Assembly: GCA_003990765.1 (NCBI GenBank)
Contig: RBNJ01000212.1
Location: forward strand, 1-36,572
Source of the DNA: Jimgerdemannia flammicorona
Lineage: Eukaryota
Reading direction: 5' to 3'
Length of the DNA: 36,572 nt
Shown here: positions 1-33,643 of the stretch, piece after piece
Layout of the letters: each line of letters begins with the position of its first letter
Position numbering within the stretch: position 1 is the first letter of the stretch
Notes under the pieces: model-generated
The model's input: only the letters and a program-made list of their open reading frames with translations
What the model was told of the DNA's origin: nothing
The model's database searches: none
Translations under genes and position numbers: made by a program

Positions 1-243
1 TACAAGTTTGCTAGCTATGAGAGGGTGGCTAAGTAATAAATGAGTCATTTGGACTTTGTCGAAACATTTAGACAATGTCTAAATGCTATGCTAAATCGGG
101 GTATTCGATTTGGATAATGTCTAAGAATTTAGACAATGTCGAAATCGAGGACTGCTAGCTATAAGGCTATACTACTTTGGGAATGGGTGCGATCAAGTGT
201 CTATTCCCTATTTCCTTCTTCCAAATTCGGCTGTACTGTCACA
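1..243 (-). repeat. LTR, family L3 (cut by window edge); same family as 33167-33643
   Basis: Near-identical to 33382-33643 and ends at the same ...GTCACA terminus. Not followed by a PPT, so it is a solo or 5' LTR inserted into a dUTPase sequence. Confidence 0.85.
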
Positions 244-553
244 GTAGCTAAAGAAGTTATAGACCAAAGATTTAAAGGCAAAATAAAAGTTCTGCTATAC
301 AATACTGAACAGAAGATAGTTGAAATTATCTGTAGAAAATGAATTATCTAAGCCATTATTGAGATAATATATAATAACCTTGAAGTCAAAGAAACAAACA
401 AACTGTTATCCTCTGATAGAGGAGAAAAAATTCAGATCAATAAAAAAGTACTCTGATAAAATCAAGGAGAAGACTAAGATATAAAAGATTATCTATATTT
501 AAAAACCTCAAGACTGAGACTAGAAATGATATCAGTATATTGCTGATAGATAT

Positions 554-2053
554 TATAACAGTGACTCCAGAATGATGACATTAGTACAGAAGACAGTCTT
601 TTCTTACAAGCCATCAGATTGGAGCACAAGAAGATCATATGGCATACAAGATGAGCAATGATGACCAACTGTGAGTCATTGTGACCACAGTACAAGCATC
701 CTGAGGAATATAAAAGAAGGATCAAGAAACTACAGTAACAGCAACCAATAAGACCCACTAATCCCAAAATAGCTCAAAGACTCACTATAAACAAAATGCC
801 TACTGCTCACCAAACCTCAAGGTCAAGGAACCACCAAGGCACCTCAGTCAAAGAAAAGATGTTCCAAGACATCAGAAGAGCCATGAGGACCTGCTCAAGA
901 AGGACTCCTAGTGACAACCTGGGTACTAGTGACCCTTATCACTATATCCTCTACCACTGTAAAATGGAAACCAGGATCACCATTGCTACCAAATGCCTCC
1001 AAATGTGGCAGGAATATGAAATAGGAATCCTCCTTTGCCAGGAGTTCCCACAGGTCGGCACTCAAGAGCTACAAGATATTACTTCTATAGATATATGCAA
1101 AATAAGGACAGCTAAGAAGATCCATCAGATCTTCAGGCATACACCATGGTCAATCCCCAACTTAGAGTATGTCAGAGTCTCAGATTTCAGAGACCTATCA
1201 TCCTGCCATATCAATGCACTAGAAGCCAGGGTGGCTACAGAAGCCCAGTTCACTATCACCCTCAATAGTGATGAAGTAGAAGACTTCTGGTATCCCATCC
1301 TTTAGGACAACCCAGACCAATTCCTACAAGGATTGATCTCAGTATTCCAAGGCCCAAGCATCCAGGTTAGACCTCTCCAAGACCCCACATTTGTTCTCTA
1401 TTTTGTGGAAGAGAACCTCATAGACTGGAGAGTTCCAGATCTCCTTGTTCCTGATTTCTCCATCACTGAATATGATGACATCATCAGCAATGATGTCATC
1501 CTGCACAACCTACATGACCTTGATGAAATGTTTGCAGACCTCATCTCCTTCAAAGATATCCTGACCTCTGATGATGAGGATGAAGCCCCCATGGTCCTGA
1601 ACATTCTGCTCTAAGTTTCTTATTATACTGAGTAATACCAGCACCAGCATTTAATGTAACACTGAATAATATCAGCACTGGTATTCTGATATAATACCAA
1701 ATCATACCAGCATCTTGAACCTATACAACCATCAGTGCTGACCCTGGAACTTAGCAGTTTTTCCTATCCTGGCATTTTATTTTAGTATCTTAACAACTAT
1801 TGAATTATATTTTGTATAAATACCCCTCTTATTTCCTCTGGAATAAATTTAGTTCCAGTTTCACTTATACACACTTTCTTGCAAGCAATCTAAGAGATAC
1901 CAAGACAGTTTCAAGATAAGAAGTTTGAGGACTATAAGACCTTGGGAAGGTACTTCAATAAGAACTTGTTTATAACAAACTTGAGTTAGTCTAAGAGATA
2001 CACCTTGAAGAGAATCTGGTATATTTGAAAGACTCAGTAACTACTATGTGATA
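554..2053 (+). repeat. Oversized (1500 bp) solo LTR, family L1, containing an ORF
   Basis: Termini TATAAC...TGTGATA (mutated TG..CA; other copies read TGTAAT and TGTGACA). ATAT on both flanks. TATAAATA at 1815-1822. Homologous to 20821-22370, where it directly follows a PPT. Confidence 0.85.
796..1614 (+). pseudogene. LTR(U3)-encoded accessory ORF, ~272 codons, unknown function
   Basis: ORFs 796-1305 and 1333-1614 are one frame separated by a single TAG (CAG in copy 20821-22370). Frame conserved in three LTR copies; acidic C-terminus. Frame may extend upstream to an ATG at 658. Confidence 0.75.
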
Positions 2054-4534
2054 ATATATATATCTCTGCAGAATGATATCCTTATAAAATTAAGATATAC
2101 TATTTTGAATATATAGGAGAATATATTATATATATCCTCAAATTCAAAAAGTACAAGTCAATTATCCCAGAATAATGAGATGAAGAAATCAAGAATATCA
2201 ATGATGAAGATAGAGAAGTATAAGATTAGAAAAAAGAAACTACCTCAGAAATAATTACTGTCTAGCAAGAAGATATATAATATAGAATATATCTGCTTCT
2301 AAGAGAAAATCAAAGGAAATCCTATTGAAGTCCTTATTGATAGTAGAGTAAGTAAGTACTATCTTGACAAAAAAACTGCTAACAAATTTCACCTCAAGAT
2401 ATAGAGAAACTCAGAAAAAAACATTATTATATTTGAAAATAGAATAATATAGAAACTCTTCAAGATATATAAAAATACACTCCAACATATCTGGATATTA
2501 CTAAATTTATATAAAAAAGAAAGATATCTCCAAGACAGTTTTTTGAATAAGATTTAAATACTATAAATTTTATATAATACTATTTGGTCTCACTAATGTA
2601 CTGATAATCTTCTAAATACTAATAAATAATATTTTTTATAAATATCTTAGAGTATTCATTTCAGTCTATCTGGATGACATTCTGGTATATAGTATAAGTA
2701 ATATTATCTACCAATAATACCAACAAATGGTTTTTAACATACTCTATAAATATAAGCTCTAAGTAAAAAAAAGAAATATTACTTCTTTAAGAAAAAAATT
2801 GAATATATAGGACATATATATTATCTCAGAAAATAGTATTACTATTAATCTTAAGAAGATCCAAGCAATCTGCAATTAATCTATCTTAAAGACTCTTAAG
2901 TTTCTATAAGAACTAGCAGAATATTATAAGAGATTTATTTAAAAATTCTCTGCAATTATCTCTTTACTTACAAGTTTTACCAGAAAGAGAGCTAATATTG
3001 AAAAAGAATAGACAGAAAGATGCACTATAGTCATGAATACTCTTAAGAGAATGCTGACTAATGTATCAATTTTAATTAGTTCTAATCTAACCAGACTTTT
3101 TATAATTATTACTAATATTTTAAATATTATTATTAAAGCTATTTAATTAGTTCCAATCTAACCAGACTCTTTGTAATTATCACTGATATTTTAAATATTA
3201 TCATTAGAGCTGTCTTGACTTAATATAAATACTTTATTGTCTACTTGTCCCAGAAACTTAACAAATATAAAAGAAATTATATTATATATGATAAGAACTC
3301 CTCACTATCATCCAATCTCTATAAGTATAGAGCTATTTTCTTTTTAGCAAAATATTTACCTTATAGACAGACCATTAAGCCCTTTAATATATCTAGATAC
3401 AATCAATTATTATAGAAAAACAGATCTGATAGATATAGATCCTTATACTCTTTGATGTTAAAATTAAGCATATTACTAAAACTAGCTGATATACTCTTCT
3501 AGAGTACTCAGAAAGATGATCTTACTATAATTAGCAATATCATTATCAGCCTATTTGAAGAAGTTAAGAAAGAGTATACCAAGAATGCTAAGATATAAGA
3601 AATTACTAAAAAAATCTTCAAAAAAGATAGTAATATTATAAAGAAGATCTATAAAAATATATCTGTCTAAAATAGATATATATATCTTAATAATATAAAA
3701 ATTTGAGTTTCTGACATCTCTATCTGCTTATAAATCCTACAAAGATTATATGATATATTTATAGCTAGATATATGAGATTTGATAAGATATACCAACATA
3801 TTATCTGAGACTTTTACTGGTCCAAAATGATATCTGATATCAAGAATTATATTATATCCTATGATATCTATCAAAGATATAAGCCTAGCAACTAGATACT
3901 AGCTGGTATACTATAGTTACTACTAATTCTTATCTGAAATTAGAACTATATCAGAATGGACTTTATTGTTCAATTACTAAAAACTAAAAAAAGAGATGTA
4001 ATTATTGTTTTTATTAATCATCTCAGTAAGTAGGTCTACTTTGTTGTAACAACTATTACTATAATAGTACTAGAAACAGTACAGCTATTATTGATAATAT
4101 ATTCTATTTTCACAGACTATCATCAGTAATTATCTCAGACTGAGATATAAAATTTATAAGCAATTTTTGATAAGTACTCTTCAAGAGCCTAGAAGTATAA
4201 CTAAAAATATCTATAGCATATTATTAAACTTATATAAGAACTTGAAAACTATATTGTTTAATTTTAATTTTCTCTAGAAGTCTCACTTATCTCATCTCTA
4301 TCTAGATCAGCAGACTCTCTAAGCTCAGCATCTTCAAGAATATCAAGAATTATATCTATATTTCAGAGCTTAAGTATCTATCTCTTAACTTCTAGCTTAC
4401 TTAAATTTATTTTATATAGATAAAGTTACTATCTAATTACTATCTAGATAATTATAAAATATATATATAGTAAGGCTAATTTAGAGAAGATGTGACTAAA
4501 TATTCCTTATAGAATAGGTGTTTCTTTATAGAGT

Positions 4535-5750
4535 TTTTTGTTTTTTGTTTTTTGTTTTTTTTTTTTTTTTTTTTTTGTTTTACAGACTCAGAGTTCTACA
4601 GATTTTTATTAGAAGGGAACCTAGACTATATAGGCCAAAACCCTCCCCTACTACCCATTAAGTACTACTCTTCCATTAATCTAGACTAGCTATTGTTCAG
4701 TAGCTTAACTATGCCAGGCACAGCAGGGCCTATAGTGACCCATACCTTATTCTATATACCATACTCTTTCTACCATCAAGGAGAACTCAGCCATATACCA
4801 ACGACTGAAAGCATACACCTGAGATCCTAATATATATATAAAGCCATGCCTGAGCTAAATAGAATAGCCCCTACTACTCCAAAGAGAATGACAGGCAAAG
4901 AAAAACCCTCATCAAAGTATATCACAGTAGATAGAGCCTAGTTCTCTCAGTCAAGGTGAGTAAAGGACTTATATATGAGACAGGAGGAGACCCTCAATAT
5001 CCCACTACTCAAGCCTGCAGACCTTGATCATATTGCTATGTCAGCTCTCAATTCTAGTTGAGTATAGTCAAGATGCCTAAAATGGGTAGTCTTGGGCCCC
5101 CCAACTGTCTCCAATAACTGGGGCCCAACCTGCTGAATCACCAAAAGAAGCCAAGAGTGACACCTACTACCTAACTGCTTCACACTAATCAAAAGGCCCC
5201 ACCAAAGCAGCACCTGCCTCAGCCCCAATAACCACCTCTAGCCTGGCATCCTACTGGTTCACCATAATTACCCTTTCTCTTATCTGTAATAGCAATCTCC
5301 CCTCCTATCCCAATATCACCCAAAAAACAGTCACCTATACCAGAACCACACTTACTGGAAAGCTTACCAAAGCCAGAGGGCCTCACTACAGATACTGAGG
5401 ACCTATAAGTAACCTATACTGGATACTTGATATCCAAGGTCAGCTGACTCTCTATATAACCTGTGACATACTGAGACAATACCTTATTGGTGATAGCAAA
5501 AGGAAGAAAGTACTGTACCAAACTAAATATACTCCAGATACAGCCAAAGGCATCAGAAACTGTGAAAAAGTGGAGAAGACACTGATTAGACATTAATAAA
5601 GAGATAACTCATCACCACTGCCTCCCTCCTACTACCCTGCAATAGGTACAGTAAACCAACCTAAGGTAGAGGAAGTAATAATTGTGGAAAGTGGACTCAG
5701 AAGATTGCCTACCAAACCATTATGACTGGTAAGGTAGTGAAGAAAGGTAT
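4535..5750 (-). mobile_element. Non-autonomous poly(A) retroposon, ~1.2 kb, copy 1 (most degenerate)
   Basis: (T6G)n/poly-T tract at the left end; colinear with 10806-12024 and 30135-31311; same 5' end. TSD only degenerate (TATAGAGT/TATGGAGT). Confidence 0.85.
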
Positions 5751-6317
5751 GATATATGGAGTATTTCTTATAGAATGAGTATTTCTTCAGAGATTAGTAT
5801 ATTATATCTGATTATTTATATAAATTAGTAATATATATATATATATAGTAACTATGTAAGATAACTATGCTAAGTATTCTTTATATATTATCTAACTATA
5901 CTTATCATATTAGAAAATATAAAAGCTCATTATTTGCAATCTGCTCTTTGTCAAGTATAATAATTATAATAAACTATAATAAAGCTATAAATTCCAATTT
6001 GCTATTATTATTAATAATTGAAATTTATATTGGAAATTTATAATTAATATTATTTATCTCCTTATATATATATCTTCTTTTATATCTCTATTATCTATCA
6101 ACTACTTCAGAATAATCTCAATTACTTCAATATATAGGTATTATTATTATTACTATTCCATATGAAGAGTAGAATTTATAATTAATAATATTGTATAATC
6201 TATCTCTTTCTCATTTTTCTATTGCCTATTGACTACTATCTACAGGGTGATATTTTACATACTATTTTCATTAGTCTGAAAGATAAATCCAATATAATCC
6301 TCAATTAGTAAGTAGTA

Positions 6318-6606
6318 GGAATTCTTCTAATATAGGTCTTTATAACTCTTTTGATATCTTAGAATATTCTTTCTTAGACTGAGAAGTCTTGGTGGTTCCT
6401 GGATCTTATAGTTTAGTGAGTAGCAGATATTTTGTTTATAGTGAGTCTTTTGAACTATTTCAGATTTTTGTAAGTCTTATTGGAGTTGCTACTACTGTGG
6501 TTTTCTGAGTAAGTTATACTATATGATCTTCTTATACTCTGATCTAGTAGCTTGTAAGGAAAGGCTATCTTCTATAATGATATCACCATTCTGAGATCAC
6601 TGTTAT
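6318..6606 (-). repeat. 5' fragment of an L1-family LTR; terminus split by the chromovirus insertion
   Basis: Reverse complement matches ~555-910; the terminal base resumes at 14282 after the GTTAT duplication. Confidence 0.75.
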
Positions 6607-7070
6607 TATAATAATTTCATAGTCATATTTAGTCTTAGTATATTTTTATATTTTTTAGTTAGTCTTTTTTTGTTATTTCTTGAATATTCTACTATATTCC
6701 ACTACCTTCTACTTGCTTAGAAACTTTCTCTCAGTATCCAGATACTACTAGAACATTTTTGTCTTTCCTTGACACTAAGTATCTTATCTTAGCTAGTTAT
6801 GAAACCTTTTGAAATATTGTAGAATAGTATTAGTCAACTTTGCCAAGAACCTATTTCTTGATATTTCTCTTTCTTTTGAAGATTCTTTTGGATCTTTCTT
6901 TCAGATTATATATAAATATCTTTATTCTCTGTCTAAATAAAGCTTAGAATATTTTCTCTCAGAAATCCTTTAAGAACACTTGAATCTTTAAGTATCTCTT
7001 TGAGCTACTTTAGGTCAATTAGGACTTCCAGATTAAGCTGCTTCCTCTTAAAGAAACTAGAACTGTTATA
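6607..7070 (+). repeat. 5' LTR, family L2
   Basis: Direct repeat of 13813-14276; differences are mostly transitions; termini mutated to TATA..TATA. Confidence 0.95.
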
Positions 7071-8126
7071 CTTGATAGCAGTAGTGTCATTATATCTCAC
7101 CTTCTTACACAAATTTGAAAAACAGTTACAACTAGTTATATAAATCTAAAATGAGCTATGAAGAGTCAGTCTATCAGCCAGACCCCTCTGCTACAGAAGA
7201 AGCAAGAGAACTGTAAGTTGGTATAGAAGATATGCTCACCACTATAGCCCACTAAATCTAAGAACTTTAAGTATAACTAGAACAGCAAAGAATAAGAACT
7301 GTGAGTATATTATATTCTACTATAGCATCAGTTAGTTTCAAGCTACTCAAGTCTAATATCTTTAATAGTCATTAAGGAGAACTATCTACAGATACATAGA
7401 TCTTCTAGTTGGACCAATACTTTAAACTCACAAGAATGGAAGAAGATATGCAAGTCTAATTTACTATCACACTTCTCTGGGGAAATACAGCCATCTGATA
7501 GTATAATTATATTATGACTATATCTATATACTCATATGCATAAATCAGAGACTGAGAAGCTTTCAAGAGAGCTCTTTACAAGCAGTTTAAGCCTACTAAT
7601 ACCACCAAGCTAGCCAGAGACAAGCTAGTAAATATCAAGTAACTTAAGTTGATACAAAGCTATAATATACAATTCTTGTTAATCCTACTTGAGCTACTAG
7701 CAATATCTGAGGACAAAAAGATAGACTGCTATGTCTGAGGCCTAAAGGGAAACACACAAGTTAAGGTTGAGCTAGAAGAACCCAAAAACCTTGATGAAGC
7801 TATGAGAATTGCCAATAGGTTTGATGTCATCACCTTTGGTAACTACTTTGAACCAGAACACTATAAGAAGAACCACTTTGAGAACTGCCACAAGAACCAA
7901 CTAAGAATAGTTGGCCTGGTATCAATGGACTTAGACACCATAAATAAAAAGAACACTAAGCTCATTCCTGAAGAAAAGGACTATCTAAAGAAATCTGGAA
8001 CCTGTTTTTTCTATTACCAAACAGGACATATTGCAACCAAATGTCCTAAGAAGACTAGTGAACCCTCAAGACCAGTCACCATATTGTCCAAAGATACACC
8101 TACCAACCCCACTACCAGTCAACCTG

Positions 8127-9019: not shown

Positions 9020-10803
9020 ATTAGAACCTCATTGAAAGCCTCAAGATCCTTATCAAGTCTGTATCCAAGAATAATAGTATAGTTACTGTAGATGGTATAC
9101 TGCACCCCATTGAGTCAATTGCCACCAAACTACCCATCAAGATCTAGAAATATTGAGAGTAAGTAAACTTTGAGATTGTACTACTAGGAGATTATAATCT
9201 GATCCTAGAAAAACTCTGGCTTATAAAATACAACTCAGATATTAATTGGTGTAAGAATGAAGTCACCTTACTTCAAGATAGAGCCAACATCACTATCAAG
9301 ACAGACAAGACCATGAGCAAGACTCAGATTGCAACACTGTCAGCTATATAGTACAAGAGAGTACTCAAAAAGACAATGCATACTTTTATTGTAATGGTCT
9401 GTCCCAAGAAACAAGACAAGAGACTATCAGTCAATGAAAGTATCAAGTTACTGCTAGAAGAATTCAAGAATGTCTTTCCAGATAAGCTACCTAGCCTACC
9501 ACTTATATGAGAAGTTGATCACAAAATCAAACTGACCCCAGGAGCTATACCATCCAAGAAATATATATATCATATATAACTACTTGAAATTGAAGCAGTT
9601 AAGAAAGAACTAGAAGAACTACTTATATAAGGAGCCATCTAGCTAAGAAAATCTCCTTATAGCTTACCAGTCTTATTCATCAAGAAGAAGGATGGTACTC
9701 TGTAGATGTACATAGACTATTGTATACTCAACAAGCTTACTGTTAAGAACTACTACCTACTACCCTTGATTGATCAAATCTTTAATACTCTCAAGAATGC
9801 CAAGTACTTCACCAAGTTGGACCTCATGTCAAGATACTACCAGATTTGAATCAAGCTAGAAGATATTCCCAAGACTGTATTTATGACCCCCTTTGGACTC
9901 TACAAATTCTTGGTCTTAGTATTTAGTCTCACCAATGCACCTACCATATTCCAGACCCTGATGAATAAGATATTCAAGAACCAACTATTTATTTTCCTAT
10001 TGGTATATCTCGATGACATTCTGATCTTTAGTATAACTAAAGAAGAATACCTCAAATACATTTGAATAGTCCTGGAGATTCTGCAAAAACATAAGCTTTA
10101 TGTCAAGCTTAAGAAGTACAAATTTTTCAAGGAACAAGTTGAATACCTTGGCCACATTATCTCTGCACAAGGAATTTAAGTAGACTCATACAAGATAGAA
10201 GTAATTGAAGAATGGCCCATTCTGTTAAATCTCACAGAACTCTGATCCTTTCTTGGTCTAGCTGGCTACTACTACTGCTTTGTCAGAAACTTCTCTAATA
10301 TTACTGAGCCACTGACTAACCTCATAAGGAAGGCTCTGCACTCAGACCACTATGTACTCTATACCTAAGACCTCTTCTATCAATAAGTCTTTCAAGAATA
10401 CAAGAACTGTCTGACCTATACTCCAGTCTTATATAATGTAGATCAAGACCTTACCATTGGAGCAGTTCTATTATAAGATAATGGCAAAGGACATCATCTT
10501 ATTACTTTTGAGTCCTATAAGTTAGTCCTGACTAAACAAAAGCTAGCCACTTATGAGAAGGAACTACTGGCAATAATACATACACTAGACTACTAGTGAT
10601 GCTATCTAGAAGATGTTGAGTTTGATATCATCACCAACTATCAATCTCTCAAGTATATCAACACCCAATCTACTCTGTTATATCTATAAGCCAAGTAGAG
10701 TCTCAAGCTTCAAACCTTCAACCCAATAATCATCTACAAGCCTGGCAAGATACTTGTAGTACCAGATATCTTATCAAGATGCTCTGACCTCACCACAATT
10801 ATA

Positions 10804-10805
<2 letters not shown>

Positions 10806-10853
<48 letters not shown>

Positions 10854-12024
10854 TTTTACGGACTCATATCCCATGGATTTTTATTAGAAGAGAACCTAGA
10901 CTATATAGGCCAAAACCCTCCCCCACCACTCACCAAGCACTGTCCCCCTATTAACCTAGGCTAGCTATTGTCCAGCGGCTCAACCATGCTAGGCGCAGCA
11001 GAGCTGATAAGCCTGCACCTCATTCTGTGCACCATGCTCTCCCTACCACCAGGGGAAATCCAACTATACACCAACAACCGAAAGCGCATGCCTGAGAACC
11101 CAATGTATGTACAAGGCCATGCCCGAGCCGAATAGAATAGCCTCTGCTACCCCAAAGAGAATGACAGGCAAATAAAAAACTCTCATCAAAGCACAACATG
11201 GTGGGTAGGGCCTGGTTCTCTCAGTTGAGGTGAGTAAAGGACTTATACATGAGGTGGGAGGAAACCCCCAATACCCCACTACTCAAGCCTGTGGGCCTCG
11301 ATCATGTTGCCATGTCAGTTCCTGGTTCCAGTTGAGTATAGCCAAGATGCCTGAAATGGGTAGCCTCGGGCCTTCTGACCCCCTCTGACGACTGGGGCCC
11401 AACCCCACTGACTGCCAAAAGAAGCTGATAGTGACACCTACCACCTAACCATGCCGCACCAATCAAAAGGCCCCACCGAAGCAGCACCTGCCCTAGCCCC
11501 AATGACTGCCCCCAGTCTGGCACCCTACTAGTTCACCATAATCGCCCTTCCACCTATCTGTGATGGCCATCTCCCCTCCCATCCCGACAACACCTGAAAA
11601 GCAGTCACCTACACCAGAACTGTGCTCGCCAGGAAGCTCACCAAAGCCAGAGGGCCCCACCACAGGCACTGAGGACCTGCAGGTAACCTACACTGAGCAC
11701 TTGATGCCCAAGGTCAGCCAACTCCCTACGTAGCCTGAGACACACCAAGACAACTCCTTGTTGGTGATGACAAAAGGAAGAAGGCACTGCACCAAAATGG
11801 GTACACCCCAGACACAGCTGAAGGCACCAGAATCTGCAAAAAAGTGGAGGAAGCACCAATCCGACACCGATAAAGGGGCAACTCATCACCATTGCCCTCC
11901 TCCCACCATGCCCCTGCAGGCACAGCAAACCAACCCGAGGTAGAGGGGGTAATATTAGGGGAAAGGGGACTTGGAAGGTCGCCTACCAAACCTTGTGACT
12001 AGTAAGGTAGTGGAGAAAGGAGCG
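10806..12024 (-). mobile_element. Non-autonomous poly(A) retroposon, ~1.2 kb, copy 2
   Basis: (TA)n plus poly-T tail; 16-bp TSD TCACCACAATTATATA (10790-10805, 12025-12040); AATAAA near the 3' end; inserted between RNaseH and integrase. Confidence 0.92.
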
Positions 12025-13812
12025 TCACCACAATTATATAAGTCACCTTAGTATCAGAATTTCTAGACCAAATCAGGCAAGCTTATAAGGAAGATATAGT
12101 TGCTACTAGAGTTTTCTCAAACAAGCTCAAGGATACATATACTATCAAGAACAATCTGATCTATCATCAAGACCAAGTTTATCTACCTGAAAACATGAAC
12201 CTATACTATAAGGTTTTACAAGAACACTATAACTCTCCTCTCATCAGTCATCTGAGAATTAAGAAAACTATCAAAAATATCTAACACCACTACTATTAGC
12301 CAAGTATGGTCAAGAAAATCAAGAACTATATTGCCAGCTGTAATCTATACCAGTGCAATAAGTCTACCAACCAAGTACTTACCAGTTTGCTACAATTACT
12401 GCCAATTTCTACTAAGAAATTTGAGTAAGTTACCATAGACTTTATAACTCAACTATCATAAACCCAATCTGGTGCTAATACTATTATCATATTCATTAAC
12501 TGTCTGACCAAGACTATGGTTGCTAAACCAACTACTATCAATACTACTACATCCAAGATTGCAAGAATCTTCTTCAAGTTCATCTTCTGTCACTATGGTC
12601 TACTATGAGTAATTGTCAGCAATTATGACCCCAAGTTTACCAGTCACTTCTGGCAAACTCTCTTCAAGACTCTGGGAACTCAACTGGCTATATCTACTGC
12701 CTTTTATCTACAAACTGATAGACAAACTGAGTATATGAACAGAACTCTAGAATAAATGCTTAGAAACTATGTTTTTTATGAGTAAGATAATTGAGACCAT
12801 TACTTAACTTATGTGAAGTTTATATATAACAATGCTATCTAATCATCTACTGGTCTTTTCCCTTTCTGGTTACTCTATAGTTGAGATCCTGAGATCTCTG
12901 TAAGTTTATTCTCTTTCAAGAAAAGCAGTCAAATATAAGTTCTTACTACTAAGAGCCTTATAGACAAAATAAACAAACTACTCAAGATTGCTACTATAAA
13001 TCTTCAGAAAGCTCAGTAGTATCAAGCCAAGTATGCTGACAAGAAATACCATGATATTACTTACACTATTGGAGATTAAGTCCTACTGTCTACTGAAAAT
13101 CTCAAGATATAATCTCAAATTAACTGCTCTTCAAACAAGTTCCAACTCAAGTATATTGGACCTTTTGAGATCACTGAATAAGTCTCTATATCCTCCTACT
13201 ACCTCAAGTTACCTGAAACCATGAGAGTATACTCAGTCTTTTATATATTATATCTTAAGATCTGGAACCAGTCACTGCTCTACTCTGATCAAATTTCTAA
13301 GCCATCTGCCCCTGTAATTATTGAAGACCATATTGAGTACAAAACTGAGAAAATCCTCAACAAATGAATCTACTACTGCTGTTCTGAATATCTAGTCAAG
13401 TAGATGGGCTCTCCTGAATATGATGCTACCTAAGAACTACTGATTGATCTCAAGAACTCTCAAGACCTAGTCCAAAACTTTAAGGCAAAATACATTGCCC
13501 AATCCCTGTAGTAACTTTCTTGGATTATTGATGACCTATAGCAATAACCAGTATCTTATGCATTAGAAGTTTACTTTGAGACCCCAGAACTAGTAAAACA
13601 TTTAATAAATAAGAAGTCTACCGAAATAAAGCTATTAGCTGGGCTTGAACTTCTACCAGTTAGTTAGTCTGATAATAGGTACTCTGCTCTATATGAGGAT
13701 AGCCAATCCTCACCAATGTACTAATATAAGTTTGAGAAATTTTGGTTAAATATATCTAGTCTTATATTACCTAAGAACTCAATGAGAATATTAATTCTTA
13801 AGGAGAGAGGGA

Positions 13813-14276
13813 TGTAATAATTTCACAGTCATATTTAGTCTTAGTATATTTTTATATCTTTTAGTTAGTCTTTTCTTATTATTTCTTGAACATTCTACTA
13901 TATTCTGCCATCTTTTACTTACTTAGAAACCTTCTCTTGGTGCCCAGATACTATTAGAATATTCTTGTCTTTCCTTGGTACTAAGTATTTTATCTTAGCT
14001 AGTTATAGAACCTTTTGGAACATTGTAGAATAGTATTAGTCAGCTTTATCAAGAATCTATTTCTTGGCATTTCTCTTTTTTTTCAAGATTCTTCTGGATC
14101 TTTCTTTCAGATTATATATAAATATCCTTGTTCTCTACCTGAATAAAGCTCAGAATATTTTCTCCCAGAAATTCTTTGAGAATACTTGAACTTTTAAGTA
14201 TCTCTTTGAGCTACTTTAGGCTAACTAGAACTTCCAGCTTAAGCTACTTTCTCTTAAAGAAACTAGAACTATTATA
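13813..14276 (+). repeat. 3' LTR, family L2
   Basis: Starts TGTAAT directly after the PPT; matches 6607-7070. Confidence 0.95.
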
Positions 14277-14282
14277 GTTATA

Positions 14283-15075
14283 ATATCTATTATTTATCTA
14301 ATCTTATTTATAATTTAAGTTAAAGTAATTTATCTATTATTTACTCAATCTTATTTATAATTTAAGTTGAAGTAATATATATCTATCTTTCTTTTTAATA
14401 TTTATATCTACTCTAATCTAATTTTATTTATAATATCTATTTATTATTCTTCTTATATATTTCAATTTAATCTTATTTATCATTTAAGCTAGAGTCATAT
14501 ATATTATTTATTTATCTAATTTTATCTATAATATTTATTTATTATTTTTCTTATCTACTTCAATATAATCTTAATTATAATTAGTACTTTCAAATAAATC
14601 AAATTGAGATCTAATATAATTAAAAATTAAAAATCAAACTTTAAAATATAAAAACTTATACAAAATATATTCAAATTTGATAATCTTTATCATATTAGAT
14701 TTTTTTAAATAAAATAAATCTAAAAGCTAAAATTTATCAAATTTGAATATATTTTTATTAAGTTATTGAATTTTGAAAATTAAGATTCAAATTGAAACTT
14801 AAATTAATTTAGATCTTAATTTAATTTGAATTAAATTAAATTGGAATTATTCTAAATCAAATTAATTCTCAATTTAATTTAAATATTTTGAATTGAATTA
14901 AATTAAGTTTAAATTTGATTTAATTTAATATATTCTAAGTACTAAGCTAAAGTGATAAATATCTATCATTTATTCAATTTAAGCTAAAGTAATATATATC
15001 TATTATTCATCTAATTTAAGATAAAGTAGTATGTTCATTGTTCATTCAATTCAAGCTGAAGCAGTATACATCCAC
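14283..15075. repeat. AT-rich degenerate minisatellite (~36-48 bp units) interrupted by a MITE-like element
   Basis: Recurrent ...ATTCAATTCAAGCTGAAGCAGTATACAT-like units (AATTTAAGCTAAAGTAATATATAT in mutated copies). Confidence 0.65.
14582..14944. mobile_element. Heavily AT-mutated MITE related to 8663-9019
   Basis: Ends TAGTACT...AGTACTA, similar length (363 bp), internal palindrome and pentamer repeats; no intact 8-bp TSD. Confidence 0.6.
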
Positions 15076-15456
15076 TCTGACCAAGCAGTATATGGCCACA
15101 CTGTAATTTAAGGGTCCTCTGGAAGCATTATAGAGACTATCCAATAGGTCCAAAAAGTCAAAAAGACGCCATACCCTAGGGTACCACCTATGCTTTTATT
15201 CGGTACCCTGCCTCCACTACTATATATCTGTCAATGAAGAAGTTCGCTGGGGCAAGCATTATCCATTTATCGTAATCAGATGTCTCCTTGTCCAGAACAT
15301 TAAAAAATAGAAATAAAAACTAAATAAAAAAAGGTGATGGGTTTATGTGAAAATTAAATGGCGTTGAAGGGGGAAAACAAAACAACCCCCCCCCCCCAAA
15401 AAAAAAGCTAAAGACGAACTAACCCCTTAACTTTCATTATAATTCACTCCCACCCC

Positions 15457-17165
15457 TCATTCGTCCGCCATGGCAACTAAACCCATCCCGAGCTCGGCCT
15501 CATCCTCCAGCCCCTCCTCGACACCCGAACGCGGCTTCACGACCCTTCGATACCGCCGCGGCCCCCACAACCTCCATTCCCGGCCGACGATGACGGGCTC
15601 GCCGATCCAGTAGACGAGAAACGTGAGAGTGGCCAGGGCGGCAATGCAGCGGTACAGTGCGGCGGGTCCGTAGGAGTTGTAGACGGCGCCGCCGACAATC
15701 CCACCGAGGCCGCCGCCGATCCCGTAGTAGATGCCGCTGTAAACGCCCACTGCCGTCGTCTGCAGGTCAAGTGGGGTAATGTTCGTCACGAAGTGAGCGC
15801 CTCCGCTCCAGAAGAGGGCGAACCTGCGGTGCGGGTGTGGTTGAGGAGGAGGGGAATGGATGGAATATGATGGCGACGTGAATAATAAATCGAGGGGAGC
15901 AAAAAAGAAAGATCTAATACTTTACAACACATTACACAAAAGCGATAGATGTTACCCACATAAAACCATGCAACATCTCGACCACCAAGCTCATAGCTGG
16001 CACCAAATTCTCCCCGAAATATCCATATACACTAGCCCTGACCAACAACGCAACCTGGCTTGCCAGTATCATGTATTTGTACCCAACAGTCTTCAGCAAA
16101 CGATCCGACATCTGGAAGCACATGACTTCGAGCGATATCCCGCACAGATGGTTAAGCCCCATGAGCGAGCGCGACGCACCGAGAGTCTCGAGGTACAAGA
16201 ACAGAAAATTTGATGCCGCACTGCGACCAACGCCCATGAGGAACGTGATAAAGAGGAAGAAGATGAACGGTGGATGGGTGAGCAGGTTAGCGAGGGCTGC
16301 GCCGAAATGGGGCGTGGTCGTGTTGCGGGACGATTTGACGAGGACGGCGTCGTGGTCGGAATCATGCGGGTTATCCTCGCCGTCGGAGTCGGTAATGGCG
16401 AAAGTAAGTTCGCCTTGTTCTGAGTCTGTGTCGAGGGGGTCCTGGATAAATGGGATTCCCTCCTGGTTGGAGCTCAGGGACCTTGTGGTGGCCAGGCCAG
16501 AGGGGGAGAATTCGTTGGGCGGGGTGCGGAAGATGAGGACGAGAAAGGCGGATATGGCAATAGCGTATATGAGGAAGGAAATTTGGACGGTATGGAAGGC
16601 GTCGATGAGGAGACCGAGGATTGCGGCGGTTAGCCCACAGGAGATGGTGCCGAAGAGGCGCTTGGAGGAGATTTGCGTCAGATGATTGTCGTCCGACATT
16701 GAAGCAATGAATTATATAATATAACCTCTCCTCGCTTACCTGCTGTCCGTACAAGCCCTTGTTCCCCGTCCTCTCCAAAAACCCCAACACATACGCATCC
16801 ACCAACGGCATCACCGCCCCCGCCAGACAAGCGTACAACAAGAAGCTTCCAAATAGCATCGGAAATTCCAAGCTCGGTCCCAGAATAGGTAGCAACACCA
16901 CAAAGGCGGCCGCGCCAATCGTGCAAGCGACGAGAATGCGCTTGTGCAACAGGTATTTGTCTGCAAGGGAGGTCCACGCAGCTGAGGAAACGAACTCGAC
17001 AAACGGTGCACACCCGAGAAGGAGGCCGATCCGGTTCGCGGTGAGACCTCCTTCTCCGAGGAAGAGAGGGAGGAAAGGGTAGATGCTACATATGGCGATA
17101 AAAAAGGTCACATAGAGGAGTTTTGGGAAGATAAAATCTATACGGAAGAGTACGGATGGAAACAT
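15457..17165 (-). CDS. MFS transporter, MFSD6-like (MFS_1_like family), 497 aa; exons 17165-16740, 16660-15960, 15823-15457
   Basis: Multiple hydrophobic helices. GT-AG splicing restores the family-typical LYGQQRLFG and EMLHGFMFALFW; also YYGIGGGLGGIVGG. Exon phases are consistent. Confidence 0.9.
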
Positions 17166-17287
17166 GGTTGCGAGAGGAACGTTGATGTGTGACTCGTCTT
17201 TTTATGCACGTGCTCTGAGACAGTCGTCTTCACGTGATGTCGCCTTAAATTGCCCCGCGGCCACACGACCAACAGTCACCACACAAC
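17166..17287. promoter_or_regulatory. 122-bp bidirectional promoter with two CACGTG E-boxes
   Basis: Head-to-head ATGs at 17165(-) and 17288(+); GCACGTGC at 17206-17213 and TCACGTGA at 17230-17237. Confidence 0.6.
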
Positions 17288-18171
17288 ATGATCTCCTTCA
17301 TCCTTCTCGTAAACAAGCAGCGCCGGACAAGGCTGTCGCGATATTTCGCCCGGGATGGCATACCATCCGTCGAAAAGCGACCGGCGTTTGAAGCCGATGT
17401 TGCCAAACACTGTTCGCTGAGGGATGATCAGAAGGTCCGAGTAACTACGAGTGGGTGGGACGCAAAGGCGTTTGCGGGCTCGATACTGACAATTTGCCAA
17501 TCACTCTGTAGGCGATGATATTTGACCATAACAAGTACCGCATAGGTAATCAATGGAAACCATTCACTTGCCGTGATAGTTTGTTGAGGCTTGCTGACCT
17601 TACTCTCTCTCCCCACTCACCTTGGTATAATTACCGTCAGCGTACCGCCGTTATGCGTCCCTTTACTTTGCTATTGGATTTGAAGGGAAAGAGGTGAGTT
17701 TAAAACGACGCTTCTGATTCGTTGGAAATGACTATCATCTCACCATTTTAACCGTTTTCAATAGAACGAATTCGCGATTCTCGAGCTCATTCAGGCCTGC
17801 GTTGGTAAGCGAACTCTCCACATTTCGCATTTTAAACAAATTTCGCACTACATAAGTGGTTATAGCGAGCCTCAAAATCGCTTCCTTCTCGCCACCGAAC
17901 CTGCTAGAGGCTTTAAACGCATATTTTGAGAACATCGTCTGTATTTTTTTCTTTTTCCACTTCGTTATTAAATGTCATCGACCGCATCTCTAAACCGTCT
18001 TCCCCGCACTACTCCGCATCGCCAAAGTCTGAGCTAGACATCATGTTCAACCTCGAGAAGGTCCACATGATCTTCGAGGAGGTCGTCCTGGACGGCCATG
18101 TCGTCGAGACGAATAAGGACAGGATCCTGGCCCCTATCATTGCCACGCGCAAGGAGAAATCGTCGCGGTGA
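17288..18171 (+). CDS. AP4S1: AP-4 adaptor complex sigma subunit, 148 aa; exons 17288-17434, 17512-17545, 17641-17693, 17765-17804, 17908-17936, 18028-18171
   Basis: Spliced product [20 protein letters not shown]...[10 protein letters not shown]...[11 protein letters not shown]...[18 protein letters not shown]...[11 protein letters not shown]. VNKQxx[13 protein letters not shown] and ETNxxRILAP match sigma4 as I recall it. All introns are GT-AG and in frame. Confidence 0.88.
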
Positions 18172-18786
18172 TGGCGGTATACCTGTTTGGGCGCGGTGGC
18201 CGACGGTCTGGCTGGATTGATATAATAATTTTAATCTATAGGTTTTGTAATGATTTTTAGGTCCGCAGTGGTAATATCGTGGGTCGATTCTGTATGAATG
18301 GTGTATGGTTTTCGACACCATAACATGATCTTTGAACATTTCAAACCCCAATGCGCACTTCTGGCTTCTGTTCTGGTTGTCTAAGGTTGAGAAAGGCAAT
18401 CATGGCTTCCTGCCAGATAATCAAGGCGGATTTCCCACGATACATGGGATCTCCCCAAATTTGACAGTCAAAAGATTCGAGTTTTGCGATTTTGGAATAA
18501 TCGATCTTCATTATATCACACTGAGCTGATATATACAAGGTTCATATTCCTGTTCATTGAATTTCACTAAAATACGGGTTGAGATAACAATTTCGATCAT
18601 TCCACCCCACCCCCCCACCCTCCTCCCTCCTCCCTCATCTTGCTGATGCGCAAATCAAACCGTCATTTCTCACAAATATCATTCAATCTCCACGAATAAC
18701 ACATTGCCGATTCAGAAATCCCGCAAACATGCAAGAACAAGACAAATGCTGACGCGGGAGCAGACCGTCGCCGACGTTCCATCCGC

Positions 18787-19431
18787 TTACTGGAACTTGC
18801 CCATGGTTTCCTGGATGCCAGCGCTCTTGTCGATACGGGAGACGAGGCGGATATTGGACTCGATGCGCTGACAGTTCATCTTGTGGATGGCATCGTGGCA
18901 CTTCCTGGTAAGGGTAAGAGGTCGGAGTGGATAACAAGAGGTGATTAGCGCAACAGTATTCTTTGCCGTTGGTAAAGTTCTATATGGAAAGGGATGGAAG
19001 GAGTCCAACCTGATGACGTTCATGACATCGTCCCAGCTGCCCTCGACGTTGGTGCCAGTGGCGTGAACGTGGAAGTTGAGGCTATTTAGCAATGCATAAG
19101 AGGTGAAGGAAAGATGAGAACTTGTAGTCGTAATTGTATTCTGACATTGTTTTGACTTACCCGCTTTCCTTCAGGATTCTGGTAGTCTCGTTGATGTACT
19201 AATCCGAGCAAGTTACAAATAAAAGTCGAAATGGATGATCGTTGCATTTACTCCCAAAGGCAATGGCGAAAGAGAAGCCTACCTTGCAGGTCGAGATGTC
19301 AGCGCCGAGGGGGGAGACGCTTTGGGGAGGCCAAGTTTGACGAAATTACTCACGGTTTCAAAACCGGACTGAAGACTAGTCATATGCACGTACCAGAAGT
19401 CAGCGAGAATGTGCTCATGGAATTCCTTCAT
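18787..19431 (-). CDS. ECM15: UPF0045/Thiamine_BP family protein (Ecm15/MTH1187-like), 100 aa; exons 19431-19394, 19319-19283, 19198-19161, 19081-19010, 18904-18787
   Basis: Spliced product MKEFHEHILADFCVSPLGADISTCKYINETTRILKESGLNFHVHATGTNVEGSWDDVMNVIRKCHDAIHKMNCQRIESNIRLVSRIDK...; GTxxEGxWD and RxDK family motifs; phases consistent. Confidence 0.87.
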
Positions 19432-20019
19432 GTCGATGGTTTTTGTATGAGTTGTTTTGGATAGAATGAACAGCGTTTGCGCTACAATTCCCATCGCTAC
19501 TTATAGCCTCCTATGCGTAAAAATTCATGCGGTACGCGAAGGATGCAGGAAATGTGACGCGTGACTGATATCATATTGGTGCATTGATATGCTGATATCA
19601 CCTTACAGATCTTTATAGCGCTGACGCTCATGGCGTAGACTGGCAATTCCATTAAAGTTCGGATTGGTTTTGTGTCAGTTTGCTTGCGCATTAGCCTTGA
19701 TCGGGTAAATTATGTCGGGTAACAATGACATCTCGCTTTGGATTAGTGGTTTCACGCTGCCCATGGGCGCAGACAATGTTTCTCCAGTATCCTATAGTTA
19801 TTTATCGCATCGCTGACGGGACGTCACACTATAGGTATTCTTCGCTTCAAACGTGTGGAAATGTAAAGAGGGAGAGGAGTACTTGTATGCTATGCTAGGC
19901 GAGCTAGTTTTGGATTGAAATGAAGTGTCAATAACTAGCTTTTGGGAACTTATGCATTTTACTTTTTATTAAATATAGTAAGCCTTGTGTGAGGAGACAT
20001 TCAGCCAAACAAATCACCC

Positions 20020-20550
20020 TATGTCTCACAGTTTTATTTGTCATAAAGGATAGAACTCTACAAATGTATGTAGACTATTATATACTCAACAAGCTTACAG
20101 TTAAGAACTGATATCTACTCATTGATCAAATTTTTGATATACTTAAGAATATCAAACATATTACTAAGCTAGACATTATATCTAGTTACTATCAAATTCA
20201 AATCAAGTCTGAAAATATTTTCAAAATTATCTTTATAATTTCTTTTAGACTTTATAAATTTCTAGTCCTTATATATATTTGGTTTTATCAATATATTTAC
20301 TATATTTCAGACTCTTATAAATAAGATATTTAAGAACTAACTTTTATTTTTCTATTAATATATCTTGATGATATTCTGATGTTTAATTTAACTAAAGAAG
20401 AGTATTTTAAGTATATTTACCTAGTTTTGAAAATTTTACAAAAATACAAATTATATATTAAGCTTAAAAAATGTGATTTTTTATTATTATATTATCTTTT
20501 CTCAAAAAATTCAAGTTGATCTATATATAAGATAGAAATAATTTAAAAAT
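20020..20550 (+). pseudogene. Highly degenerate Ty3/gypsy RT fragment related to family L2
   Basis: Similar to ~9660-10210; LIYLDDILMF near 20360-20385. Confidence 0.8.
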
Positions 20551-20558
20551 AATTTGAA

Positions 20559-20820
20559 TATAATAGTTTTAGTTTCTTTAAGAGAAAGCAACTAAATTTT
20601 TTAAAAAAATTAGTAAATTTAGAATAATTCAAAGAGATATTTAAAGGTTTGGATAATTTTAAAGAATTTCTAAAAAAAAAAAAAAAATTGAGTTTTATTC
20701 AAACAGATAAAGAGAATATTTATAAAAAGATCTTAGAAATAAAGAGAAAAGCCAAAAAAGTAATTTTAGTAAAAAATAGTTAATACAGTTTTATAATATT
20801 CTAAAAAGTTCTATAATTAG
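20559..20820 (-). repeat. Partial, heavily mutated L2 LTR truncated by an L1 LTR
   Basis: Matches 25513-25790. Confidence 0.75.
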
Positions 20821-23235
20821 TATTATATAGTAGTCACTGAGTCCTTTAAATATGTCAGATTCTCTTCAAGATATATCTCTTAGACTAACTACAAGTTTGT
20901 TATAAGTAGGTTCTTATTAGAGTGTCTTTCCAAGGTCTTATAGTTCTCAAACTTCTTATCTTTAAACTGTCTTATTATTTCTTAAATTGCTTGCATAGAA
21001 TTGAGGGTAAGTGAACTGGAACTGACTTTATTTTAAAGGAAATGAGAGAAGTATTTATATAAAATATAATTTAATAGTTGCTAAGTTATAAAGTTAAATA
21101 TAAATTCCAATAACTAAATAAAATACTGAAACATAAAAAACTATAGTTGTAAGTACAAATTCAAGTGTCTATACAAATAGTTATATAAGTTCAGAATATT
21201 AGTAGATTTTGGTGATATAGAAAAAGAGTGCTTGAAGATTCAGATATTATAAAAAAAAGAATACTAGTAGAATTTAGTATATAAAAAAAGGATGCTAGAA
21301 GATTTCAGTATTATCAAGAACTTAGAGCAAAATGTTCAAGACCATAGGGGCTTTATCTTTGTTGCTGCTGAAGAAAATGAGATCTATGAATATTTTGTCT
21401 ATTTTGTATATATTGTATAGAATAATATTATTACTAATAATATCATCATATTCAATAGTGGGGAAAGTAAGGAGATCCAGAGCTCTCCAATCTATGATAT
21501 TCTCTTCTACAAAATAAGAAACAAATGTGGGGTCTTGGGGAGGTCTAATCTAGATACTGGGACCTTGGAATACTGAGATAAATCCTTATATGAATTGATC
21601 TGGATTGTCCTGGAGGATGGGATACTAGAACTCTTCTACTTCATCACTATTGAAGATGATAGTGGACTGGGCTTCTGTGGCCACTATGGCCTTCAGTATA
21701 TTGGTATAGTAGGCTGACAATTTCTTAAAGTCTGAGACTTTGGTATACTTCAAGTTGGGGATCAACTATAGTATATGCCTGAAAACCTAATAAATCTTCT
21801 TGGCTGTCATTATTTCATATATATATATAGGAGTAGTATCTTGTATTTCTTGGAGACTGGCCTGAGAGAATTCCCAGTAGAGAAGATTTCCTATTTTGTA
21901 TTTCTGCCACATCTAGAGATATTTGATAGCAATAGTGATCCTTGTTTCTATTTCATAGCAGTAGAGAATATAATGATAAGAATCACTAGTACTCAGGTTG
22001 AGGCTAGAAGTCCTTCTTATACAGATTCTTATAGCTTTTCTGATGCCTTAGAACATCCTTTTCTGGACTAAGAGATCTAGTAATTTCTGGACCTTGAGGT
22101 TTAGTGAGCAGCAGGTATTTATTTATGGTAAGTCTTTTGAACTATTTTTGTAAGCTTTGTTTGAGTTGCTGCTACTGCAGTTTCTTAATCCTTCTTTTAT
22201 ATTCCTCAAGATATCTGTCTTGTAGTTATAATGACTTATGGTTGGTCATCATTGCTCATCTTATAGCCTGGGTGAGTTATGCCATATGATCTTCTTATAC
22301 TCTGATTTAGTAACTTATAAGAAAAGGCTATCTCCTGTACTGATATCATCATTCTGAGGTCATCATTACATCTTTCTTCTGAATAAGGATCTTCTCTTGA
22401 ATATTCTTATTTATTGATCTAGTCTGAAAAATTTACTGATCTCATAACCTCTGGTAGGAGATCAAAAAGTGGTATTTATGGGCTGGTGTCTTCTCTATGT
22501 ATTTTGACATGATGGTGAAGGGTCACTCCCTTCATATAGAGCAAGGGCCTAATTCTGATCTTGATCAATCAGTTGATGGTTCAAACTTCTCTAGCTTTGA
22601 AAGTCTCATAGATGAGTAGTTACTGGTACTATATCTCTTAAAGAATAGTCTAGAAAGATTGCTTACTAGTCATGGAATATGCTGTTATAATTCACAGACT
22701 AGAACCTTGTAGGTGGTCATTATATTTTACTTCTCTTATATAGATTTATAGTACTTTTTGAGTCTGTTCTTATATACTATAGTAGGCAGTATAGTCTCTG
22801 AGAGTTTTCTAAACCAGAAGATAGTTTTCTTGATATTTTGCATATAGAAGAGTCCTTCTCCTCCAGTTTTCATAAATATGAAGCTTCTACCATATTTTGA
22901 TATAGTAGGACATTTTCTCTGATTTGGATGAGTTTTAGGGTCTTGTGATTCTTTTCTGCATTCTTTCTTATCAGTATTTGTAACTTGATGATGTAATCTT
23001 TGGCCTTCTTTCTAATTTGGTATAGTCTCCAGATTTCTGAGTTAATTTGTCTCTATATTAGGTCTAGATTTATGACTGAGATTCTATCAGAATCTTCTTT
23101 TCCATAGAGCAGTTCTCTTGGGGTAAAGTGTGTACTCTGTGACTATATATCTTATAGAACAGAGAGAGTAGTTGAGAGGTAGTTATCCCAATTGTCATAT
23201 ATATCTGAGATCTTTGCCAGAATGTTCTTGGTAAG
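20821..23235 (-). mobile_element. 3' portion of a family-L1 gypsy element: integrase C-half (~23235-22745), spacer, PPT (~22371-22380) and 1550-bp 3' LTR (22370-20821) containing the accessory ORF
   Basis: KNILAKISDIYDNWDNYLS...EIWRLYQIRKKA...YQNMVEAS...TIFWFRKLSETILPT is closely similar to the integrase at 34156-34740; purine tract then TGTAATG. Confidence 0.88.
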
Positions 23236-23295
23236 CAGAACTTAAGAAAATAGAAGAAGTCAGTATTATCAAGCAAGCTATTAGCCTCTGGGCTT

Positions 23296-33166: not shown

Positions 33167-33643
33167 TGTAATGTAGCAGATGCTTACTTTTGAAAGTACG
33201 TCAGATTTCTGTATCTTGAAAACTTGACAGTTTTGACTCTCGCAGAGTCTCTTGAAGTGGCAGGGGAGGGTGGGTGAGTTCGAAGTGTATCTGCCTGCAG
33301 GCTTACTAGTTCCTTTGCTATCTCTTTACTTTGAACTATTTTGATCTGAGGTTTATTCACTTGAAGATACTGGGTTATTTATACAAGTTTTGCTAGCTAT
33401 AAGAGGGTGGCTAAGTAATAAATGAGTCATTTGGACTTTGTCAAAACATTTGGACAATGTCTAAATACTATACTAAATTGGAGTATCCGATTTGGATAAT
33501 GTCTAAAATTTAGACAATGTCTAAGAATTTAGACAATGTTGAAATCGAGGACTGCTAACTATAAGGCTATACTACTTTGGGAATGGGTGCGATCAAGTGT
33601 CTATTTCCTATTTCCTTCTTCCAAATTTGGCTGTACCGTCACA
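33167..33643 (-). repeat. 3' LTR, family L3 (477 bp)
   Basis: Begins TGTGAC after the PPT and ends TTACA; matches 1-243. Confidence 0.85.

Follow-up and report, generated by a model that had tools for sequence, protein, structure and literature searches.

We analysed a 36,572-nt stretch of Jimgerdemannia flammicorona DNA (contig RBNJ01000212.1 of assembly GCA_003990765.1; hereafter the window). Positions 554-2053 of the window are very probably a solo long terminal repeat (LTR) of a Ty3/gypsy-type retrotransposon family, here termed L1, and the U3 (unique 3′) region of this LTR holds a genuine, selected accessory gene. The boundaries of the LTR and the position of the gene in U3 were both established. 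A first-pass annotation of this DNA had placed an open reading frame (ORF) of ~272 codons wholly between the LTR termini and upstream of the core LTR promoter (TATA2, below); the position was correct (796-1614), but a TAG codon interrupts the frame in the solo LTR. The L1 features of the window are as follows.

554-2053, plus strand: solo LTR of family L1, 1500 bp, inside an older gypsy element; TG..CA ends decayed to TA..TA, ends common to copies
796-1614, plus strand: accessory-gene ORF in U3, 272 codons and a stop codon, interrupted in the solo copy
1303-1305, plus strand: in-frame TAG at codon 170, private to the solo copy; CAG in the family
6316-6610, minus strand: L1 LTR 5′-end fragment, matching ~551-910 and abutting the start of another LTR family
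20821-22370, minus strand: 1550-bp copy, 3′ LTR of an L1-type element, with a strongly decayed ORF
22371-22388, minus strand: polypurine tract (PPT) region, CCTTATTCAGAAGAAAGA, adjoining the LTR start
22782-23230, minus strand: integrase C-terminal remnant of an L1-type element, 70% nucleotide identity to the integrase region (34175-34630) of a sister element, L3
23296-24553, plus strand: 5′-truncated L1 LTR copy, matching 831-2053 and ending in ...GTGACA

Evidence that the 1.5-kb repeat is an LTR

The L1 repeat family was found by self-comparison of the window, with both termini common to three copies. The unit at 554-2053 begins with TATAACAG, which reads TGTAAC elsewhere in the family, and ends in ...CTATGTGATA, which reads GTGACA in the copy at 23296-24553 (terminating in ...CTATGTGACA). 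The minus-strand copy (22370->20821) begins with TGTAATGATGACC immediately after CCTTATTCAGAAGAAAGA. LTR-type termini with a short inverted repeat are present, as TGTAAC... in the minus-strand copy and in metagenome contigs and as ...GTGACA in the copy at 23296-24553. Since the copy at 20821-22370 is preceded by both an integrase remnant and a PPT, as the first-pass annotation had noted, the unit was identified as an LTR. The L1 and L3 integrases were also called close relatives there, and the two regions have 70% nucleotide identity; the pol order reverse transcriptase (RT)-ribonuclease H (RNase H)-integrase was seen in the sister element L3, and L1 retains the integrase remnant alone. No primer binding site (PBS) motif was matched in the window at up to 3 mismatches, and no tRNA genes were detected in it.

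Outside evidence was provided by Logan contigs from four runs (X1, X2, X3 and X8), of which three are soil metagenomes and one is a coded organism run, aligned at a likeness of at least 80% (1723, 402, 84 and 208 contigs in the four runs, all of at most 270 nt). Contig depth was below 8 at 400-527 and 2064-2300 and reached hundreds to thousands inside the unit, with the jump at 528-591 and the drop after 2063. Loose contig ends before 556 contained an undecayed PPT junction, reading ...CCTTATTCAGGAGGAAGA or ...AGGAGGAAGA joined directly to TG (three contigs from X1, one from X2). Behind 2051 the loose ends read CA, ACT, TGGTGCCCATTGG... (one contig from X2, one from X3), a PBS-like junction of the TGG type. 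Three contigs lacked the unit altogether, with joints from 549 to 2058, 553 to 2084 and 553 to 2095; they represent further copies of the host element in which the insertion site is empty. The earlier claim that the repeat is an LTR with the ORF in its U3 gains support from these observations (PPT-TG junctions, CA with PBS-like sequence, and empty sites) and from the selection on the ORF (below), and the 1.5-kb unit is highly likely to be an LTR.

The host is itself a gypsy element:

2054-4500 with an upstream part at 246-553, plus strand: decayed Ty3/gypsy element hosting the solo LTR; Pfam, on a reading with stops as X, gave RT, RNase H and an integrase zinc domain

Only ~280 nt separate 2053 from a protease-like motif of the host (by eye, ~2330), and RVT_1 begins near 2490. 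As gag would not fit between 2053 and the host protease, the unit was inserted into the host element and is not the 5′ LTR of that element itself.

Other arrangements of L1 copies were observed in the window. At 22370-24553 two inverted L1 LTR copies surround a 930-bp piece with the integrase remnant, and the plus-strand copy (23296-24553) is cut at the equivalent of 831, directly beside the integrase fragment; this layout indicates a rearrangement or deletion. Another junction, at 6600-6612, brings the minus-strand L1 LTR fragment and a plus-strand third-family LTR together head to head, their 5′ ends no more than ~1 base apart.

The reading frame in U3 and its relatives

The frame extends over 796-1611 with a TAA stop at 1612-1614, wholly within the unit and upstream of TATA2. 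Because of the TAG at codon 170, the longest true ORF in the solo copy is 169 aa; the other two long copies are full of stops and one is also frameshifted. All relatives carry Q at the position of codon 170, and C at 1303 accounted for 968.5 of 987.5 (X1), 120.6 of 125.3 (X2), 17.9 of 17.9 (X3) and 70.6 of 73.3 (X8) of contig depth. The solo copy was inactivated by the CAG>TAG change together with general C>T decay. The expectation that a solo LTR leaves a complete gene behind thus fails for the solo LTR of the window, with its TAG at 1303-1305 and many C>T changes.

A first protein search returned three relatives, including P0002 (271 aa), which has 72% identity over its full length. An exhaustive search of 1.84 billion representatives returned six matches, of which five were real, free-standing proteins of 138-342 aa, with no fused forms; the sixth (P0007) was rejected as a repeat artefact. 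The homologues comprise P0001, P0002, P0003, P0004, P0006, P0008 and the ORF of L001 (323 aa); intact homologues measure 200-342 aa, and frames are open across relatives of 29-79% identity. L001, a metagenome contig of 1345 nt, has a frame of 323 codons that is intact and lies ahead of GTATAAATACCCCTC and AATAAA, both as in the window; it was the sole related locus among metagenome contigs, with none in the viral or genome contig sets. Eight matching sequencing runs were listed, all with small shares (0.05-0.16), seven of them soil metagenomes. Members of the protein cluster all derive from metagenomes and none is informatively named. The contigs that bear P0006, P0009 (an ORF3 relative, below) and P0018 measure 4848, 3003 and 2375 nt.

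Comparison of the window copy with L001 (54% protein identity) gave proportions of 0.27 for non-synonymous (pN) and 0.69 for synonymous differences (pS), with a non-synonymous divergence of 0.33. Across 271 codons dN/dS was ~0.17, and the core alone gave 0.12; both values are approximate because dS is saturated (~2). DNA identity between L1 and L001 was 64% in the ORF, 36% in the spacer behind it and 57% from TATA2 onward. The substitution pattern shows protein-level purifying selection on the ORF in the active lineage.

The encoded protein

In intact relatives the protein has 271 aa, with an N-terminal arm that is basic, a core that is helical and a C-terminal half that is acidic. The pI is ~4.5-4.9, with a basic stretch over the first 60 residues (+8 in the 271-aa form) and a strongly acidic C-terminal half, and a C-terminal motif P-x-x-LNF is kept in distant members. 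Pfam contained no family for pieces of the ORF nor for the six intact relatives at E<=1, and a profile search of PDB sequences gave no matches at E<=1. AlphaFold2 models were mostly helical and of low confidence, with a mean pLDDT (predicted local distance difference test) of 51.5 from 8 sequences and 56.3 from 16 sequences. Foldseek against PDB returned no matches at E<=1e-3, the wide VIA-align search had a top Z of 3.7 (none at Z>=5), and in the atlas search the best score of the ORF protein was 0.83, under the lead threshold. As a guess, the layout of a basic arm and an acidic half would fit a nuclear regulatory or adaptor protein. The protein may act in trans on the cycle of the element, for example in LTR transcription, RNA handling or escape from silencing; we consider the chances of this to be even.

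LTR anatomy and expression of the gene

Three signals were located in the solo LTR:

709-716, plus strand: TATA1, predicted to be the promoter of the LTR gene; TATAAAAG within GAATATAAAAG
1814-1828, plus strand: TATA2, core LTR promoter, GTATAAATACCCCTC; same motif in L001; U3 would end ~25-30 nt downstream
1842-1847, plus strand: AATAAA poly(A) signal, 26 nt past TATA2; TATA-AATAAA spacing equal in L001 and L3

The block from TATA2 (with TATAAATA at 1815-1822) to AATAAA was also detected in the LTR of L3, which has no ORF (L3 against L001: 77% over 53 nt, E 1.3e-5), and because the block is common to both families TATA2 was taken to be the promoter of the genomic RNA. As this promoter lies downstream of the ORF, the ORF belongs to U3. 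The poly(A) signal stands at or just before the start site, which points to a short R (repeat) region, and ~200 nt separate AATAAA from the CA end of the LTR. Since U3 is copied from the PPT onward in reverse transcription, each new element would bear the gene twice and each solo LTR would begin with one copy of it. In the solo LTR the AATAAA lies in the loop of a 7-bp hairpin (1838-1858, plus strand; CTGGAAT...AGTTCCAG), the stem of which is not clearly retained in the other copies or in L001.

Upstream of the ORF, the TATA1 element GAATATAAAAG is kept at 11 of 11 positions in L001 and in the minus-strand copy. The start of the LTR (554-708) holds six ATGs, 717-795 is free of ATG, and the first ATG after TATA1 is the ORF start (796), likewise in L001; the spacer behind the ORF (1615-1813) is poorly conserved. 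A transcript could start from TATA1 (709-716), pass by way of the ATG-free leader through the ORF and end at the AATAAA (1842-1847). Transcription of the gene from its own TATA1 to the AATAAA of the LTR, with the LTR as a self-contained unit of ~1.1 kb, is the tentative reading of these motifs, and its probability falls somewhat short of even.

By analogy with the sag gene of mouse mammary tumor virus (MMTV) and nef of human immunodeficiency virus (HIV), the ORF in U3 may instead lack a promoter of its own and be expressed from a spliced subgenomic RNA that starts in the 5′ LTR, with solo LTRs silent. Retroviral 3′ genes follow such a rule, and in the solo copy a branch-point-like ACTAAT and a TAG stand 20-35 nt ahead of the start codon. 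This acceptor-like site is not kept in L001, however, while TATA1 and the ATG-free leader are, and the six ATGs stand between the LTR start and TATA1. We rate expression from spliced RNA as unlikely, though still a serious candidate.

The sister family L3 and movement across the LTR boundary

An element of the sister family lies at the end of the window, and part of a second LTR of this type at its start:

33828-36571, minus strand: L3 pol with RT, RNase H and integrase in Ty3/gypsy order (Pfam RVT_1, RT_RNaseH, Integrase_H2C2, rve), extending beyond the window
33681-34142, minus strand: L3 ORF3, homologous to the LTR gene and located between integrase and PPT; 153 codons, two of them turned into stops by C>T/G>A
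33653->33645, minus strand: L3 PPT, AGGAGGAAG
33167-33643, minus strand: L3 3′ LTR, 477 bp, TGTGAC...ATTACA, no ORF, same TATA/AATAAA core
1-243, minus strand: part of a second L3-type LTR, 88% identity to 33382-33643

ORF3 begins ~20 nt past the integrase stop and in a different frame. Nine relatives of ORF3, intact or partial, were found in metagenomes (P0009 is intact at 153 aa), none with a known family, and a 'longer' search with ORF3 gave no fused forms, which is weak evidence. Comparison of ORF3 with the LTR protein by hhalign gave a probability of 88% and an E of 3.1e-6 over 114 columns, covering residues ~14-149 of the LTR protein (its N-terminal half). With the hidden Markov model (HMM) of each family, the next-best matches in the window, which were weak, fell only on copies of the other family. 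This homology supports the earlier suggestion that the ORF (or the PPT) had crossed the LTR boundary. The ORF3 HMM had no match before the L1-type PPT (22363-22781), and alignments of that stretch with the L3 region were not significant in either nucleotide or purine/pyrimidine form (z 1.9 and 1.8). By eye, the stretch before the L1-type PPT has a short possible likeness to the start of ORF3 (KST..L.K).

The PPT and the LTR start are alike in L1 and L3, and a move or copy of the ORF into U3 therefore fits better than a shift of the PPT; from the sequences compared, the simplest description would be that the ORF was moved or copied and the PPT was not shifted. In an extended form of this reading, a gene normally between integrase and PPT was moved or copied together with a promoter into U3, making the LTR a complete cassette of TATA box, ATG-free leader, ORF and shared poly(A) signal. 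We regard the extended form as possible, with the balance tilted against it. Were it true, every LTR, solo ones included, could make the protein in trans, dosage would follow the number of LTRs and not that of elements, and the gene would survive the loss of its element.

In the U3 of L3-type LTRs, 3-4 tandem motifs of ~16 nt (TAGACATTGTCYAAAT-like) were observed at 33440-33545 (minus strand) and at 60-140 (read on the plus strand); they are possibly enhancer repeats.

Weighing the evidence and alternative explanations

Several observations weigh against the interpretation of 554-2053 as a solo LTR with a selected gene in U3, in addition to the saturation of dS given above. All four L1 copies in the window are dead, and no full-length L1 element with paired 1.5-kb LTRs was found within it. 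The two contigs with the PBS-like junction are each at most 174 nt long and fall short of the ORF. The candidate target-site duplication, ATAT on either side of 554-2053, falls within an (AT)n run and carries little weight; the empty sites hold (AT)3-4 against (AT)5 expected, a difference of 1-2 AT units. No RNA dataset is among the eight matching runs listed. The homology with L3 ORF3 is at profile level only (21% identity), and the role of the protein is a guess because it has no Pfam, PDB or fold match.

The ORF might be a passenger that stems from a host gene, part of which was captured, and that has no role for the element. Capture of genes by LTR elements is known (PMC7264820), and the protein has no retroelement domain. 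Its relatives are nevertheless all small free-standing ORFs on short metagenome contigs and none is a longer cellular protein, a homologue occupies the internal region of the sister element L3, and selection was maintained across lineages that are at most 54% identical, all of which makes a passenger improbable.

A second alternative takes the true LTR to be short (from a few hundred bases before TATA2 to 2053), with the ORF as an ordinary 3′ internal ORF and 554-2053 as a truncated 3′ end. This layout is found exactly in the sister L3, and the missing pair of 1.5-kb LTRs would agree with it. The copies at 554 and 6610, however, are independent and share the same start base, each beside unrelated DNA; in the empty-site contigs the flanks meet precisely and all of the 1.5 kb is missing, and the conserved PPT adjoins 554 and not the spacer behind the ORF. 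Truncation from the 5′ side is also not known for LTR elements, and a short LTR is very improbable. Conservation of cis-acting DNA or RNA signals in place of a protein would suit U3 regions, which contain enhancers (the U3 of L3 has tandem motifs), but is extremely improbable given synonymous sites that are saturated against a non-synonymous divergence of 0.33 and frames of 200-342 codons that are open in relatives at 29-79% identity.

Sequence decay

Five transposon stretches, 2054-4500 and 20821-22362 among them, were measured for the ratio of observed to expected CpG. Four gave 0.0-0.05 and the fifth, the L3 element, gave 0.33, against 1.08 for a gene island of the window (15400-19700); the GC content of old copies is as low as 0.24. 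The two copies with the most decay have private changes that are mostly C>T/G>A, in the contexts CpA, CpC and CpT. Classical repeat-induced point mutation (RIP) was dismissed as the only source of the decay, with a RIP index, (CA+TG)/(AC+GT), of 1.13-1.42 and CpG fully depleted. This pattern suggests that the decay probably reflects transposon-targeted cytosine methylation and deamination, not classical RIP alone.

The surrounding window

In the window, a nest of eukaryotic transposons surrounds a small gene island at ~15.4-19.7 kb. By Pfam, the island contains an MFS_1_like transporter, a clathrin-adaptor small chain and a thiamine-binding protein, together with a weak match to an endoplasmic reticulum-retention receptor (E 0.002, under the Pfam cut-off). 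RT fragments at 9622-10115 and 19984-20470 (plus strand) have 72% DNA identity to each other and flank the gene island region, with RVT_1 detected at 9850-10062 (E 3.4e-9).

A third LTR-like family, starting with TGTAACAATTTCATAG, is present at 6609-7073 and 13573-14312 (plus strand) and at 25515-26216, 32606-32761 and 20522-20820 (minus strand). The copies at 13815 and 25974 share ~240 bp of common internal sequence upstream, and the element ending at 25974 contains a dUTPase domain (Pfam E 1.2e-16; 26947-27219, minus strand). Three copies of a 1.2-kb repeat with G+C ~0.5 (4544-5747, 10820-12023 and 30129-31311, plus strand) are 78-91% identical; this G+C-rich repeat carries minus-strand ORFs of 72-114 aa without a Pfam match.

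Comparison with known systems

Extra genes of LTR retrotransposons have been described as internal, whereas the L1 gene sits in U3. For plant LTR retrotransposons, Vicient and Casacuberta (2020; PMC7264820) put additional ORFs in the internal region, on either side of gag-pol, and in the passages searched no mention of an ORF inside an LTR was found. The ORF3 of L3 (33681-34142) belongs to the aORF-3S kind, sense ORFs that come after pol and before the 3′ LTR, and is homologous to the LTR gene. In L1 the gene follows the PPT, unlike an aORF-3S; the L3 homologue precedes the PPT, as an aORF-3S does. In rice, Retrosat2, RIRE3 and RIRE8 contain ORF0, an orphan extra ORF in the internal region upstream of gag-pol (PMC3485330). 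The LTR gene resembles ORF0 in being an orphan ORF of gypsy elements with very long LTRs that evolves faster than pol, and differs in that ORF0 has plant hosts and is internal and not in the LTR; no homology between the two would be expected.

The extra ORF brtn is antisense and internal. It belongs to BcGypsy1 and is mentioned in a preprint on Botrytis (10.1101/2021.04.13.439636). No LTR retrotransposon with an ORF inside the LTR was found in the literature searched, outside which most subscription journals lie, so that this is not proof of absence; a text search on ORF-containing LTRs turned up nothing but one paper on MMTV.

LTRs of Cassandra terminal-repeat retrotransposons in miniature (TRIM) carry an independently transcribed 5S RNA gene, and the LTR of BARE-1 has two TATA boxes. 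With its predicted TATA1 promoter, the L1 LTR would resemble both in holding a second independent transcription unit or promoter, but these provide an RNA gene or alternative starts of the element RNA, whereas the L1 LTR has a protein-coding gene. U3 genes are textbook knowledge only for a few retroviruses, namely sag of MMTV and the overlapping nef and bel genes. Accessory genes that occupy U3 sequence of the 3′ LTR include nef of HIV and simian immunodeficiency virus (SIV) and bel/bet of foamy viruses; nef and bel/bet merely overlap U3 and start internally, whereas the start codon of the L1 gene and, judged from its motifs, its apparent promoter lie inside the LTR.

Solo LTRs are usually annotated as non-coding, and a family whose solo LTRs are born as complete genes would escape standard pipelines. 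An orphan protein that is clearly selected and has no known fold or family may be a new factor of element-host interaction. The U3 position invites the question of how gene duplication, solo-LTR survival and promoter interference affect the element, and a gene that stands before the PPT in one family and after it in its sister offers a concrete system for the entry of accessory genes into an LTR.

In MMTV the superantigen ORF sag is located in the U3 of an LTR of ~1.3 kb, and a second promoter within this U3 has been described. The L1 gene shares with sag a sense ORF of ~270-320 codons; in both cases the LTR is unusually long and its U3 contains the whole ORF, ahead of the main TATA box, so that both LTRs would have it. 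The two differ in other respects. MMTV is an enveloped mouse retrovirus and L1 a Ty3/gypsy-type element; no env-like domain was found in the parts of the window read (Pfam, translations), which include no complete L1 element. Sag is a type II membrane protein, whereas the LTR protein is acidic and helical without an obvious membrane segment. Homology to Sag was not detected, with no Pfam families at E<=1 for six members (the presence of a superantigen model in the library being unchecked) and no PDB sequences at E<=1. In layout, the nearest analogue of the L1 gene is MMTV sag, and if the cassette reading is true the L1 gene would be its retrotransposon counterpart, a case caught in the act of how retroviral 3′ genes enter U3.

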